Part shown: positions 1 to 44,291 of the stretch, piece by piece | How the letters are laid out: the number at the start of each line of letters is the position of its first letter | Position numbering within the stretch: position 1 is the first letter of the stretch | Assembly (NCBI GenBank): GCA_030295235.1 | Contig: AP026134.1 | Span: 682,001-746,000 of the forward strand | Length of the DNA: 64,000 bases | Origin: Fistulifera solaris | Lineage: Eukaryota | Direction: 5' to 3' | The notes under the pieces: model-generated | Database searches by the model: none | Seen by the model: the letters and a program-made list of their open reading frames with translations, nothing else | Told to the model about the DNA's origin: nothing | Made by a program: the position numbers and the translations under genes

Positions 1-2735
1 TCTTTGATTGCATGTCTTCGGCAACAACAATTTTAGATGCTAGGTTTACCCGTTCTTGAGCTCTGCTTAGGAGTCTACCATCCATATGCACAGGTTCGAA
101 TCGCGTCGACAGGTCCTTCATTATCTTTGCATACATTTTGTCCTCGTCCGACGCAATTAATGATACACTGCATCCCACGGCATCTTGACCAACACCGCGC
201 TGCACGATAAAAAACAAAAAGCACGAGTTAGAGACGCAAAAGTAGTACCTTCACTAAAGGCCAAACTTCGTAGCTCAGACAGCCAAGGGAACAATGTTTT
301 GTCTCTACATAAAGTTTTCAGAGACTCTAGTCCATACACACACTGTGTTCATCAACGCCAAACCCTGCAAAGCTTGACGAACAAGAAGATACTTACCGCC
401 GTACGCCCTGACCGATGAACAAAGGTATCAACCTTTCGCGCAGCATCGTAATGGACGACAGTTGAAACCGAGGGGATATCCAAACCGCGCGCTGCCACAT
501 CCGTTGCAACAACGACAACATTCCCTGTAGCGTTACGAAACGACTCTAATACTTTGATACGTGCTCGCTGTAATTATGATAAAACAGAAACGCATCAGTT
601 AAATTTCAGGGCGAACAATTGAACAATTGAGGCAGCAAGATATCGCGTCAAGGGCTCAGAGATTGTTCACATGACCCTCATGGGAGCGACATAAACAAGT
701 CGTTTTGACGAGCCATATGTCTCAGGAAACAGTTATTTTCCTCACAGCCACATGACAAAGGAGACTAACATCCCAACCAACGTACCTGTTGCATGTTTGC
801 ATGTAGCATTTTGGTTTGTATACCCAACGTTTGCAATGTTGTACCAACACGCTTCACAGCGGCAATCGAATTACAAAATACTAAGCAGGGCCCAGATCTG
901 CCTTCTTTCGTTGTCATTAAATAAGCGTACAAATGGGAATCCTTGTGCAACTGTGTGCACTTTATTTGCTGCAGACGAAGACCCGGTGGCAGGCGAAATC
1001 TGTCATTGGGATCTTTCTTTTGCTTCTTCTTTTCATTGCTTACGGTAGCTTTAGTAGTTGGTTTTTCACTGTGGGAGAGATCAACAATTTTTGCTTTTCC
1101 TCCTGCGTGAGCGATTTCGACAAGTTGAGCGATTGCCCCGTCTAAAACGGATGTATCAGTCCTCTTTCGCTTCTTGGATTTTTCCGAACCAGGTAAAGTC
1201 AGCGTGGCGGAAAAGATGAAGGTTTGGCGATGCACAGGTGGGGATGAAGGCAAACTAATCGCATCCTCATCAGACTCGGATTCATACTCATGCTTTGACT
1301 CCTCTTCGTATTCGTCATCTTTGGGTTTGTTCGCCTCTGCTGGTTCTTGGCGCTGTTTCGCCAGCTCATTCAAGATATTATCACTTAGCATCGTCACTTT
1401 GGCTTCGCCTCGAATTCCTGGCAAACCCAACATGCGATCGCAGTCTTCTTCGTCGACGTCATCCATGTCCTCATCGTCGGATTCGGTCATAGGGTTGGCC
1501 CGATGTACCGCATCCAATATGCGTCTCAATTGTTCGAATGACCCTTGTTGATTCATGCGATCAGCTTCATCCAAGACCAAGAAGCGCAATTGAGACAAAT
1601 CATTTAAATGAGGGTGCTCACGACTCGACATCTGTTAAAAGGCATTCAATGGTGAGATAAGCGAAGGGATACGAGCAATTAATAAGAGTTTGATAGTCTC
1701 CGACAATAATCGGCTCGACATTGTTGGAACTCCGACGGATGTCTAGATTGCGATGTAATTTCTTCTTCGACATAAAAAACCACTCTTTTCATACATTGCA
1801 GACTTACCAACTCCCACAGTCGTCCGACTGTTCCCACCAGAATAGTTGGCCTATCTACATCTAGTACACGAGCCTGTTTGGCTTGAGCTAGCCCTCCTAC
1901 TATACATCCAATCGATGCAAACGCCTTCCCAACCTTTTCAACTTGCAGCGCCAGTTCTCTCGTAGGGGTCAAAATCAGAGCTTGAAGCGGGGAATGTCGA
2001 GATAAATTGGCATCCAGCAAATGCTGCACAATTGGCAGGATGTAGGCCAGAGTCTTACCTGACCCCGTGGGGGCCGCGCCCAAGATATCGCATCGCCCAA
2101 GAATTGCAGCTGGAAGCGTTGCGGCTTGAATCGGCGTGGGGGTCCAAAATTCGTTCTTCAGAAGTGTGTTACAGATCTTGAGATGCAGCAACACCCCACC
2201 AGTTGCACCACACCATGATGATTGTAGAGAAATTGTCTCCTCCGACGTTTCGCCTGTACTAGTAACAGTCTTTGCCGGGACCTCGGTCGACGAATTGCTC
2301 TTACCCTTCGGCTTTTTTCTTCTTGGTTTTCTTCTTTTTGTGTGCGTTAACTTTTGAAGAGGACGTATCTGGTTTTAAGACCCTGTCTTTCTTGTCCTCA
2401 ACAAGCCCTCCGTCTGTATTTCCGACGTCCTGCTTCAATACACTCTGCTTCTTTACCTTTTTTGTGGTGGCCTTCGATGCTTTTTCCGCATTTGGTTTGG
2501 TATGTTTTTCGTTCGGTGAAGGATTATCCAGTATTGTAAATGATGTTTTACCGTCTAGTATTTCAACTTTGTAGGAGTCTCCGCTGAGCACTTCTAACCC
2601 ATTGAAAATGGCGACTTGTTCGCCGGGCTCGACCGGTAAATCTTTGGAACTAACTTTGACATCTGAATGATCGTAATGATTCTTTTCCGAGTCTTCTGGG
2701 TCATCCAGAGAGACGTTTACTTTCTTCCAAGGCAT
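1..2735 (-). CDS. DDX24: DEAD-box RNA helicase DDX24/MAK5-like (ribosome biogenesis); 3' end lies outside the window
   Basis: Motifs [45 protein letters not shown]. Long acidic insert between motifs II and III is typical of DDX24/MAK5. GT-AG introns at 1632-1807, 568-785 and 200-396 restore the frame. One homopolymer frameshift near 2312. Confidence 0.88.
271..360 (-). ncRNA. Intronic box C/D snoRNA, double guide (predicted LSU rRNA sites equivalent to the SNORD53 and SNORD52/snR78 targets)
   Basis: In DDX24 intron 200-396. C box UGAUGA (354-349), D' CUGA (321-318), D CUGA (278-275), short terminal stem. Guide before D is complementary to LSU ACAGCCAAGGGAAC (14 nt, 279-292). Guide before D' is complementary to LSU GACUCUAGU (323-331). 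Confidence 0.88.
653..749 (-). ncRNA. Intronic box C/D snoRNA candidate guiding the LSU A-loop Um (yeast Um2921 equivalent)
   Basis: In DDX24 intron 568-785. Variant C box GUGAGGA (745-739), internal CUGA, D box CUGA (659-656), GGC/GCC terminal stem. A 10-nt guide adjacent to D is complementary to LSU GAUUGUUCAC (661-670). Confidence 0.7.
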
Positions 2736-40651: not shown

Positions 40652-43600
40652 CTAACCACCTGATGTAAAAAGACTGCGCCTGCGTGCGAACCGACGTTTC
40701 TTGCCGTTTTCTTTGTTTCGCTCTTCTTGTCTTAATCTCTCAGCTTCTTCTTCGTCACGTAGCTTGTAATTCAACACCAACTCAGCAACAATCTGTACCC
40801 CCTTGCTTTCCCACTCATTTCTGTTGTTGATTGCATAGTTTAAGCACTCCTCGCTGCTGACACCGAATACACCGCACTCTTTTAGCTTTTTGCCAAGGGA
40901 ATCACATAAGAATCAAAGAATTTAACTTCACCGTCAACCCAAAACTCGCTAGGATCTTTCGCCATTCGGCCGGCACGGTACGCCGTATAAAGTTCATCGA
41001 ACAACCGACGATTCCATTTCTGGTACACATGCCAGTGTTGCATACTGTGTGCTACATCCGATGCCTGAACGATATGCTCAATTACTATCGTTGCCTTGCG
41101 ATTCGGAGTGTCGTCGTCTCTCTCAGTGAAAGCCTTTTCCCACCGCGCTTGTCGCATAGCCAAAAGTTCTGGATCAAAAATATCTGTAGCCATCACAACG
41201 TTCACCACAACCTGACGGAACCGGTCAAGCTCAGATTGCGTGGCAAACATGCATTTGAGTAGCTCACCATACTCCTCCTCATCCATCAGCAAGTCCCAGG
41301 CTAGGTCGACCGAATTTTGCTCAGCAACACTCTTATTCTGATACTTTTCAGCGATAGGAACACCCTCTTTTACTAGCTGCTGATTCGACACCCCCAATGG
41401 TCGCAATCATGAATGAGTGCCGCGAAGACAATCGCTAGCTGTGTCAACGGGTCGGAAGTGATGCCATAGGTGTAATGATGTAAATCTGAGGCGAGCTCTT
41501 TGCCCCCCATTTGCAACGATCTACGCCGGACTTTCATTTCGGGGGCCACAATACGTTGCAGTAATTTATTCACGCTCATCGTCACATGACTAGCATGCTC
41601 GAAATTGTGAAAGGATTATTTCGATACATTGCCGCGATCACGGCAACGTATCGCTTCAATTGAGCCTTCACTGCAGGTCCCAAATTGATCGTGTCGGGGT
41701 CAACATACCCTTTATAGGCAGCAGCGTCGAATTCCGGCAGAGATATGACTTCGACCACTTCATCAAGAACCTTTACATTACTTTTTTCACGTGAGAAAAC
41801 AGGTGCCGACTCCTGAGTGGCATCAATTTTAGCCAAATTTAACATGCGTCGTTGAGCGATAACCTGACGCAGCAGACCAGCGAGCAGATCAACGTTGTAA
41901 TCAATGAGCCGAATGTGTTTCTGCTTTTGTTGCATGATATCTAATTGGCTGTCATCAGCTTCACCGTCTTCTTGGTTGCCCCAAATATCATCTGATTGTT
42001 TTGTCAAACTATCGTCGGAGATCGTAGAGCTGATACTCCTACGAGAGTTCTGCGGATGAAACCAATAAGTTTGCAGTTCCCCCTTGCCTTTGGCGAGCAC
42101 TTTCTCTTCGCGAGCTCTGATCCAGTGACCTTTACCGGCTTTGGTTACTAAATCCGCTGTTGTCGCTGAAAGCTGGATTTGGTCACGCTGGCCTGTACTC
42201 TCCATTCTCGCTGCCGTATTCACAGTGTCACCAAACAACTGAAACCGGGACTTTTCTCCGCGGAGAACTCCTGCCGTCACGGGGCCGCTGTGCAAACCAA
42301 AACGCATCTTTAAATCGCTAGTGTCGGGACCAAGTGTCAAGTCCAGTGATTGCGTAATGGCATTCATTTTAGCACGACAGTCTCGAGCAAAGCGACACAT
42401 GATCAACGCATGATCTTCTTGTGGATCTGGCAAGCCCGTCACTGCCACATAGCTATCGCCAATTGTTTCCACCTTAAATACTCCTCTCTTCCGTGCTATT
42501 TTATCAAAAGCTTGGTACACGCTTTCCAACAACGTGAAAACCTGAGCTGGATCTCGTACACTAGACCAAGCAGTGAAGCCACTGATGTCTGATATATTTG
42601 TAAGGTCGAGTTAGGACGGAAAGTGTTAGATACTTGATTGGATGTTGCGATTATTTTTTGTCAAAGATCTTCAGAATCGTAGCCTTACCCGCAAACTGTA
42701 ATTTTTAGAAGGAATTAGAAGCAGAAAGTAAGAGAAATGTTAAGACAAAAAGCAGAAATGTTTCATCAGATGTGAACGCACCAAAACTGTGCAATTGGGA
42801 AACAAATCAGCAATTGGCTTCAGTCCCCCTCCCTCTGATATGGGAACGTCTCCGTTGTGGTCCAAGAAAGAACGCAGCCGTTGCTTTGTAGGCTCAAAAA
42901 CTACTAAAGTAGAGTCGTCCTGCGTAATGTCCTCGTCGAGACTGGGATCGCCATTTTCGCCCAGACTCTCACGACGAAAAAGTCGATCGTGAACTTGCTC
43001 GGGAAACAAAGAGCTCAAAATAGCCCGACTTTGAACAGCATGTTCGAGCACAATTTTTGACGTTTGGCAACCAACAGGTCGTACCAGGCAAACATAGAAG
43101 CAACCAAGGCAAACCCTAAGGCTGTCACGAAAGCGAGCCAAAAAGCATGGTGACTTTGAGTCGACGAATTAGATGGGTAGAAATCGACCGTGTAATTACA
43201 AGAAGCTGAAGGTAGTTTCAACTCAGAATGTAGCAACATATCCCTATGCTTCGATGTATCGCGGTTCCAGCCTTGAAAGTCTCCTTTGTTTAGGTCGATT
43301 GTGAGATTGACGCCCACTTGGCAGGAATCTCGAACGACGGCCAGCACGTTAAGCGGAGACGAGGTTAGCCCCTCTCTCCGCAACAAAGATCCCCAAGAAG
43401 ACAAAAGTACAACTATGGCTTTCACCTCTGTACTATTCTTGTCGCTCAAAATGGGATGGAGGAATGCCGAAACAGGAGAGAGATTTGCCTCGCCCGCATC
43501 CAAGATGGGTCCCCACGTCGGCTTTGCCGTATTAAGAACGTCCAGGAGGGGTGCTTTCCAGTCCTCTAAACTGAACAGATTCAAATTGACCAAGTGACTT

Positions 43601-44291
43601 GCTTCATCCGCCGGAAACATCTGCCACATGGGCGCAAGGGTCCATTACCGACGGTGGGGCTTCCGTCGGCATTGAAAATGTGGGGTCGGATTGATACTAG
43701 CTTTCGTGCAGTTGCCTCCTCTACATTGTATCGAAATCTTAAATTAAGCTTGTCCGATACTTTGGAAGGAATCCAGTCAACGTGATGGGGTGCGTAATCT
43801 TCCCATTCTGCTATATTTTCTTTCGTGACTAAAGGGAACCACCAAACGCCGGAAAGGTTCAAAAGATCACGGACTGTTTGAGTGGTAGAAGGAAAATCAG
43901 GTGTAGTGACGGTAGGATATTCTTCCTGAAGTATATTCGCAAGACGTGAAATGTCATTGGCTAATCCGTTTGCTGCGGTAGCGTGTTGATGGGTCCATGA
44001 CTCTTGCAGTCGTTGTTGTACTTGAGACGCTTGCGAATAAAATAAAGCCGCAGCTATCTTTTTCTGCCTTTGGACAGTCGATTGGTACACGAATTCGATA
44101 CTGATGACAGCAGTGACGAAGAGGATAATCATGATTCCTTTCCTAACATAAGCAACTGCCCGATTTTCGCTGGTCGCGAGGCCTTCGGCCGTTCGGTCGC
44201 GCTGAATCGCGTCTTCCCCGCTTTCGATCGATCCTAAAGAGCCCTCATCGGCAAATGAAGTGCCATCGTCGTGTGTCGGTGGTTGACTCAT
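40652..44291 (-). CDS. Membrane receptor-type nucleotidyl cyclase fused to class I phosphodiesterase (GC/PDE)
   Basis: Two TM helices flanking a CHASE-like ectodomain. Cyclase motifs VL|FA|DISGFT, KVETIGDSY, GLHSGPV, FGDTVNTAARMES. PDE motifs NPFHNFEHASH, IHDCDH, MATD, QASDVAH. Introns 42696-42781 and 42589-42688; several frameshifts. Confidence 0.9.

Follow-up and report, generated by a model that had tools for sequence, protein, structure and literature searches.

A candidate box C/D snoRNA for the A-loop uridine of large subunit rRNA in a helicase gene intron of the diatom Fistulifera solaris

Introduction

The A-loop, formed by helix 92 of the large subunit (LSU) ribosomal RNA (rRNA), contains a uridine that is reported to be 2'-O-methylated in bacteria, yeast, human, Arabidopsis and Dictyostelium (E. 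coli Um2552, yeast Um2921, human Um4498 or Um4468 in the older numbering, Arabidopsis Um2922 and Dictyostelium Um3254). This methylation is described as one of very few rRNA ribose methylations common to bacteria, organelles and the eukaryotic cytoplasm, and the way in which it is made varies. Bacteria are described as using a protein enzyme (RlmE/FtsJ in E. coli). In yeast, the small nucleolar RNA (snoRNA) snR52 is reported to guide the methylation of 25S Um2921 redundantly with the protein Spb1, and in Dictyostelium discoideum the snoRNA CD25 is assigned to the equivalent 26S Um3254 and also to 17S Am612. The passages of a 2024 review that deal with this site list no snoRNA for Arabidopsis and give FTSJ3 for human. 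Here we describe a candidate box C/D snoRNA directed at the same uridine in the pennate diatom Fistulifera solaris. It occupies positions 653..749 of the minus strand in a stretch of 64,000 nucleotides (contig AP026134.1 of assembly GCA_030295235.1, positions 682,001 to 746,000 of the forward strand; hereafter the window), within an intron of a gene for a DDX24/MAK5-type RNA helicase.

A standard kink-turn has a bulge of 3 nt followed by tandem G-A pairs; box C/D kink-turns carry U:U at the next position, 3b:3n, and this pair governs kink-turn folding in metal ions (PMC5689011). The kink-turns of box C/D RNAs and of U4 small nuclear RNA (snRNA) are described as failing to fold in ions alone, yet they fold upon binding of a protein of the L7Ae family. 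A 2020 paper states that, until its own work on Ostreococcus, Chlamydomonas and Euglena were the only unicellular algae with characterised snoRNA families. The papers covered by our search hold neither a catalogue of diatom box C/D snoRNAs nor a map of diatom rRNA methylation. The element had been proposed in an earlier note made from the letters of this DNA, and that note's account of redundancy between snR52 and Spb1 in yeast agrees with what the literature reports.

Results

Box C/D anatomy

Read on the minus strand from 749 to 653, the element consists of GGC, a single U, the C box GUGAGGA, a 13-nt spacer, CUGA, a hairpin, the C'-like box AUGAGGG, a 15-nt spacer, a second CUGA and GCC (Table 1). 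Its sequence is arranged like that of a box C/D snoRNA: C box, guide, D' box, loop, C' box, guide, D box and a short closing stem. In the terminal stem one nucleotide separates the 5' arm from the C box, and none lies between the D box and the 3' arm. The spacer between the C'-like box and the D box is UCAUGUGAACAAUCU (674-660), and within it lies the antisense element GUGAACAAUCU. What is found in 653..749 is therefore a C box, a D box, a terminal stem and an antisense element of at least about 10 nt with a target at the fifth nucleotide. The D' box is also well placed.

All elements that the earlier note had listed lie on the minus strand where it had put them: GGC, GUGAGGA and the internal CUGA in the 5' half, and in the 3' half GUGAACAAUC (670-661), the single U at 660, CUGA and GCC. 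Its box C/D anatomy is borne out by the boxes, the spacers and the stem, and the C'-like box AUGAGGG is an addition to it. The note had also called the C box non-canonical, which comes down to one substitution, U to G at position 5. Both GA dinucleotides are kept, and the same G recurs at position 5 of the C'-like box.

GUGAGGA and CUGA can be arranged as a putative kink-turn in which GGC/GCC forms the C-stem, U-G-U the bulge, two G-A pairs follow, a G-U pair replaces U-U, and a G-C pair comes next. This arrangement applies established knowledge to the two boxes, and position 5 of the C box is what we take, from the scheme cited in the Introduction, to be kink-turn position 3b. The G at this position may be tolerable rather than disabling, because the G-A pairs of the kink-turn are kept, the C'-like box carries the same G, and binding of L7Ae-family proteins folds kink-turns of this kind. 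The minimum free energy (MFE) fold of 653..749 has -28.7 kcal/mol (z = -2.0), and 7 of 200 shuffled sequences are equally stable; the fold of the free RNA says little about a ribonucleoprotein (RNP).

Table 1. Features of the candidate element, its host gene and the neighbouring intron (positions within the window)
Feature	Position	Strand	Basis or remark
Candidate box C/D snoRNA, 97 nt from arm to arm	653..749	-	Sequence read; no other complete C-D'-C'-D architecture with stem in the window
Terminal stem, 5' arm GGC	747..749	-	Complementary to GCC 655-653; ends paired in the MFE fold
C box GUGAGGA	739..745	-	6 of 7 consensus positions (RUGAUGA); position 5 is G instead of U
Spacer AAAUAACUGUUUC before D', 13 nt, orphan guide	726..738	-	Best match to the 361-nt LSU 3' piece: 7 bp with 1 G-U
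D' box CUGA	722..725	-	Sequence read
Internal hairpin between D' and C', 6 bp (GACAUA 721-716 with UAUGUC 693-688)	688..721	-	One possible fold; MFE pairing partly different
C'-like box AUGAGGG	675..681	-	Sequence read; G at position 5, as in the C box
Antisense element GUGAACAAUCU, 11 nt	660..670	-	Pairs with GGAUUGUUCAC, LSU helix 92
D box CUGA	656..659	-	Sequence read
Terminal stem, 3' arm GCC	653..655	-	Pairs with GGC 749-747; paired in the MFE fold
Host intron, 218 nt, GUACGU..UUACAG, phase 0	568..785	-	RNA contig joint 567/786; junction MQQ/RAR colinear with orthologues P0004 and P0017
Host exon, 282 codons, upstream of the snoRNA intron	786..1631	-	Pfam DEAD; 100% identical to NCBI-named DDX24/MAK5 of Fistulifera solaris
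Host exon, 57 codons, between the two snoRNA introns	397..567	-	Helicase_C, Pfam PF00271, E = 2.2e-16
Intron with Z157-like snoRNA, 197 nt	200..396	-	Spliced contig joint 199/397; junction GRTA/RG colinear with orthologues
C/D snoRNA resembling Rfam snoZ157/R69/R10	267..362	-	35.2 bits (gathering score 55); in intron 200..396

Antisense element and rRNA target

The antisense element pairs with GGAUUGUUCAC over 11 bp, ten of them Watson-Crick and one G-U, with an RNAduplex energy of -14.8 kcal/mol. In the Rfam consensus LSU_rRNA_eukarya, GGAUUGUUCAC corresponds to the 5' arm and loop of the helix-92 hairpin (5 bp, loop UGUUC). The consensus at this site reads uGGAU-UGUUC-ACCCa, a 5-bp hairpin with a 5-nt loop, and the letters of the motif are capitals, which denote high conservation. 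A664, the fifth nucleotide upstream of the D box (D+5), pairs with the first loop U of helix 92, directly before the loop G. The guide register in the earlier note is thus correct, as judged by the Rfam consensus and by the pairing with a second reference, contig L021, of which the target U is nucleotide 9.

L021 was chosen by scanning the IMG/VR contigs with a 15-nt version of the motif. The scan returned 46 stretches, only one of which (L021) also had the sarcin-ricin-loop motif, 105 nt downstream. Positions 1-361 of L021 are identified by Rfam as the 3' end of a eukaryotic LSU rRNA (126.8 bits, E = 1.7e-31). The contig is filed as viral and begins with this rRNA end; it is probably a fragment of eukaryotic ribosomal DNA that was misplaced among viral sequences.

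The D' spacer was searched against the same 361-nt LSU 3' piece, which comes from a foreign LSU, and its best match is 7 bp with one G-U, to GAGACAG at nucleotides 54-60 of L021, about 45 nt 3' of the A-loop U. At only 7 bp we judge this pairing to be due to chance. The earlier note had reported no convincing target for the internal CUGA guide, and within this piece of LSU rRNA the same holds. Separately, an accessory pairing of the D' spacer near the main target is conceivable.

In its predicted target the diatom element is alike to both described snoRNAs for this site. With snR52 it shares the target nucleotide, the first loop U of helix 92, and the C/D fifth-nucleotide mechanism, and, as for the yeast site, a parallel protein route probably exists in the diatom. 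The two differ in that no sequence or structure homology to snR52 is detectable (Rfam at E<=10 gave only a partial snoU61 match), that the diatom element is intronic, and that its C box has G at position 5. snR52 is an independently transcribed gene with a second target, and its family is present in Rfam 15. CD25, from outside the fungi, is likewise a C/D snoRNA to which this A-loop U is assigned, and it shows that the guided route exists beyond yeast. It has a second target in the small subunit rRNA, whereas the D' spacer of the diatom element has none in the LSU 3' piece; the two are likened by target alone. RlmE/FtsJ, Spb1 and FTSJ3 act on the same nucleotide with the same presumed role in the function of the A-site and peptidyl-transferase centre and in 60S maturation. 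These, however, are stand-alone enzymes without a guide RNA, whereas the diatom element is a predicted RNA guide for fibrillarin.

Frequency of the architecture in random sequence

The architecture was defined as TGA[TG]GA with CTGA 60-130 nt downstream, a flush terminal stem of 3 Watson-Crick bp, a CTGA as D' that follows the C box by 10-20 nt, and a TGA[TG]G that precedes the D guide. In the real 64-kb window this full architecture occurs once, at 653..749, and at least one match was obtained in 3 of 300 dinucleotide shuffles of the window. When the C' box is left out of the definition, the real window still has one match, against a mean of 0.12 per shuffle in the same set. The C box, D box and stem alone are found five times in the window, with a mean of 2.6 per shuffle. 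The other matches to this reduced pattern (42768..42671, 44102..44205 and two short ones) look like chance occurrences: one spans an acceptor-like site (..ACAG), and one lies in acidic coding-like sequence.

The guide 10-mer itself shows no enrichment in the window, with one exact occurrence and 4 occurrences at up to one mismatch, where 6.4 were expected. Both strands of the window contain 463 CTGA sites. When the sequence upstream of each was aligned in the guide register with the 361-nt LSU piece, the candidate gave the longest match and the sole one of 11 bp; it is also the sole one that falls on a known methylated nucleotide. Of the two lines of evidence the architecture is the stronger. 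By our own rough estimate, which assumes independence, the architecture together with an 11-bp match on a known site is expected at roughly 5e-6 per 64-kb window. To obtain it, we took how often the architecture arises per site and multiplied this by the probability that an 11-bp match falls on one of some 110 rRNA positions known to be methylated, a figure that follows the numbers reported for yeast, human and Arabidopsis. The joint event—a guide on a known methylated nucleotide, in a sense-oriented intronic element, beside another intron that bears a snoRNA—is far beyond chance.

The helicase gene and its introns

The candidate is sense-oriented in the intron 568..785, beginning 36 nt after the 5' splice site and ending 85 nt before the 3' splice site. 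A spliced contig from an RNA-like sequencing run joins 567 to 786 and skips 218 nt with GT..AG on the strand of the gene; a joint between 1631 and 1808 is present in another run. In the orthologues of Mayamaea and Nitzschia, ..MQQ/RAR.. and ..GRTA/RG.. run exactly over the exon junctions (marked here by the slash).

Pfam DEAD is found on two upstream exons, and Helicase_C on the exon directly downstream of the intron with the candidate. The closest named relative of the upstream exon is the NCBI entry 'ATP-dependent RNA helicase DDX24/MAK5 [Fistulifera solaris]', identical at 100%, and 163 relatives, mostly from diatoms, were obtained at E<=1e-10. DDX24/MAK5 orthologues are present among them from the pennate genera Mayamaea, Nitzschia, Seminavis, Cylindrotheca and Epithemia and from the centric genera Thalassiosira and Cyclotella. 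Several relatives from JGI are likewise named DDX24/MAK5, the names being those of the sources and given without phylogeny. The host thus combines DEAD and Helicase_C with nearest named relatives of the DDX24/MAK5 subfamily, which supports the DDX24 host of the earlier note. In PDB the upstream exon has no match, and among the best 60 of the 115 matches to the N-terminal exon none is named DDX24 or MAK5. Helicases of the ribosome-biogenesis type belong to the usual class of snoRNA host genes.

The public model of the host gene (P0001) continues past the 5' splice site of the intron with the candidate (765-785), ends with ..MQQVRWLGC and is without the Helicase_C exons (397-567 and 2-199). That the gene continues beyond the stop of this model is shown by the orthologues and by the spliced RNA contig; the public model is truncated because the intron 568..785 was not recognised.

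The next intron of the same gene contains an element similar to the Rfam family snoZ157/R69/R10. Its match has E = 8e-5 in a search of 3 kb and 0.0017 over the 64-kb window, where it is the sole Rfam match at E<=1. It has a canonical UGAUGA C box and conforms to the consensus of the family in both guides. Its distance is 34 nt from the 5' splice site and 67 nt from the 3' splice site. The candidate and this neighbour therefore share the host, the strand, the placement within the intron (36 and 34 nt from the 5' splice site), a similar length and a short terminal stem of GGC type; they differ in that the neighbour has the canonical C box, other guides and a recognisable relation to an Rfam family (35.2 bits), which the candidate lacks. 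Because the adjoining intron holds a C/D snoRNA that Rfam can recognise, it is reasonable to regard the DDX24/MAK5-type gene as a putative multi-snoRNA host gene, as the earlier note had proposed. A third intron (1807..1632, minus strand) is close in length, at 176 nt, to the two that bear snoRNAs; Rfam gives no match to it, and shuffled sequences fold at least as well (z = +1.15).

Two further observations concern the gene sequence. Compared with the window, the spliced contig with the joints 567/786 and 199/397 has 40 differences over 657 positions of the upstream exon (786-1442) and none over 171 of the next one (397-567). It probably stems from a second copy of the gene that has diverged but has the same exons, or else is chimeric; Fistulifera solaris is described as allodiploid, which would explain a second copy. 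At position 2313 all three sequencing runs are one letter shorter than the window, and the helicase frame shifts between the open reading frames (ORFs) 2301-2930 and 1679-2374. This is probably a 1-nt homopolymer error or a variant in the lysine-rich N-terminal region.

Discussion

We consider it probable that 653..749, about 97 nt long, is a true intronic snoRNA of the box C/D class and directs 2'-O-methylation to the A-loop U in this pennate diatom. This reading is favoured by the combination of four boxes, spacers of 13 and 15 nt and a flush 3-bp stem, found once in the window and rarely in its shuffles, and by an 11-bp guide that puts D+5 on the very U that snR52 and CD25 guide elsewhere. 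It is also favoured by the position of the element, sense-oriented in a verified intron of a ribosome-biogenesis-type host and next to the intron with the Z157-like snoRNA, and by the nature of the C-box deviation, which falls at 3b, where protein binding still folds box C/D kink-turns. Of the interpretation in the earlier note, the anatomy, the guide register, the host and the multi-snoRNA gene have stood; the function as a diatom guide itself stays a prediction from sequence.

On this reading the candidate would be transcribed within the pre-mRNA (precursor messenger RNA) of the DDX24/MAK5-type helicase, from which the intron 568..785 would be spliced out, a step for which the spliced RNA contig is direct evidence. 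Snu13, Nop56, Nop58 and fibrillarin would assemble on the C/D kink-turn with its GGC/GCC stem, 3-nt bulge, tandem G-A pairs, G-U and G-C, and exonucleases would trim the excised intron to the RNP. The 11-nt element would then pair with the 5' arm and loop of helix 92 in the pre-rRNA, which would bring the first loop U opposite position 5 for 2'-O-methylation by fibrillarin. An enzyme of the Spb1 type probably acts in parallel, as in yeast.

Several observations weigh against this reading, and many of them would favour an alternative in which no functional RNP is formed: either short motifs have come together by chance in an ordinary intron, or a former snoRNA has decayed into a relic whose altered C box and poor C'/D' would no longer support assembly, the intron being simply degraded after splicing. 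The C box deviates from the canonical form, and the C'-like box, rather than being flush with the internal hairpin, is separated from it by 6 nt, so that it is doubtful whether C' and D' form a canonical kink-turn. In the MFE fold GGC pairs with GCC, and the 5' end of the guide is in part tied up. Rfam gives no match to 653..749 at gathering thresholds, and at E<=10 over 3 kb it gives only a partial match to snoU61 (SNORD61), in which the 5' 45 nt of the candidate (C box and region of the D' spacer) align weakly to the 5' part of the model; we reject membership in this family, since the match has 19.2 bits where the gathering score is 55, with E = 0.94, and leaves the 3' half unaligned. RNA and conservation likewise lend no support. 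Among the listed sequencing runs none recorded as RNA contains the intron with the candidate, and the one that does contain it looks like DNA. In contigs from three runs, unspliced cover comes from one DNA-like run, and the two RNA-like runs have spliced mRNA only; contigs of this kind cannot reveal the ends of small RNAs, and an uncovered intron in the RNA-like runs is uninformative on a small RNA. A pattern scan of metagenomes with the upstream exon matched at least 587 stretches, from which one relative was confirmed (L001). This relative is AT-rich and 51% identical, has its introns elsewhere and no snoRNA, and is too distant to be informative. The pattern of guide, D box and C box occurs once in viral contigs (and not at all at a shorter spacing), where it coincides with the end of a 155-codon ORF and we take it for a chance match; it has no occurrence in prokaryotic genome contigs. 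Matches of guide length next to CUGA are common: 3 of the 463 CTGA sites on both strands reach at least 10 bp in register, with up to one G-U, somewhere in the 361-nt LSU piece, so the guide match taken alone, at 10-11 bp, is weak evidence. The other two such matches must be due to chance because they lie in non-conserved parts of the foreign rRNA. The target references themselves, the Rfam eukaryotic LSU consensus and L021 from an unrelated eukaryote, stand in for this diatom's own rRNA. As to chance more generally, the C box, D box and stem alone exceed their expectation in the window only about twofold, and even at the estimated joint frequency a very large scan could yield an occasional case. 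Against an absence of function stand the scarcity of the full architecture among the shuffles and, independently of it, the placement of D+5 on the exact nucleotide that is universally methylated. The sense orientation, the offset from the 5' splice site that is also that of the bona fide snoRNA in the next intron, and the ribosome-biogenesis host weigh in the same direction, and a relic would be expected to have lost its guide or its short stem as readily as one position of a box. We therefore regard a non-functional element as unlikely.

A different alternative accepts a real and stable box C/D snoRNP and denies that methylation of the A-loop U is its main or only role. The U would then be modified chiefly by a protein of the Spb1/FTSJ3/RlmE type, and the snoRNA would serve as a folding chaperone that opens helix 92 during pre-60S assembly, or would act mainly through its D' guide on another target. 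A further point against the preferred reading belongs here, namely that the A-loop site does not require a snoRNA, since the Arabidopsis site is methylated without a detectable guide and the human one is attributed to FTSJ3 in the review passages cited above; the redundant cover by Spb1 reported for yeast has the same tendency. The D' spacer is 13 nt long and well placed, the search for its target covered only 361 nt of a foreign LSU, and CD25 is described as having two targets. The same is true of snR52. Against a role of this kind, the duplex has the geometry of a methylation guide, with 11 bp from position 1 and the target at position 5, nothing in the sequence suggests a function as a chaperone only, and the D' spacer has no match longer than 7 bp in the LSU 3' piece. 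This alternative appears quite improbable to us, and we retain the reading of 653..749 as a methylation guide for the A-loop U.

Guides for the A-loop U were already known in yeast and Dictyostelium; what is new is the predicted extension of the RNA-guided route to stramenopiles. Genome editing with RNPs of clustered regularly interspaced short palindromic repeats (CRISPR) has been reported in Fistulifera solaris, so that the prediction is open to testing. Recognition of intronic snoRNAs would also improve the annotation of diatom genes. As a tentative proposal, which we hold to be possible rather than likely, RNA-guided methylation of the A-loop U may be an old eukaryotic trait and not a peculiarity of fungi, and the diatom snoRNA may moreover work with kink-turns that have G-U in place of U-U in both C and C' and stand nearer to the U4 snRNA type. 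If this is true, guides for the A-loop U would exist in three distant lineages—fungi (snR52), Amoebozoa (CD25) and stramenopiles—with none known in land plants and animals. A stramenopile guide would allow one to ask whether the redundancy of snoRNA and Spb1 is ancient; the guided and the Spb1-type routes would then have coexisted early, and one or the other would have been lost repeatedly.

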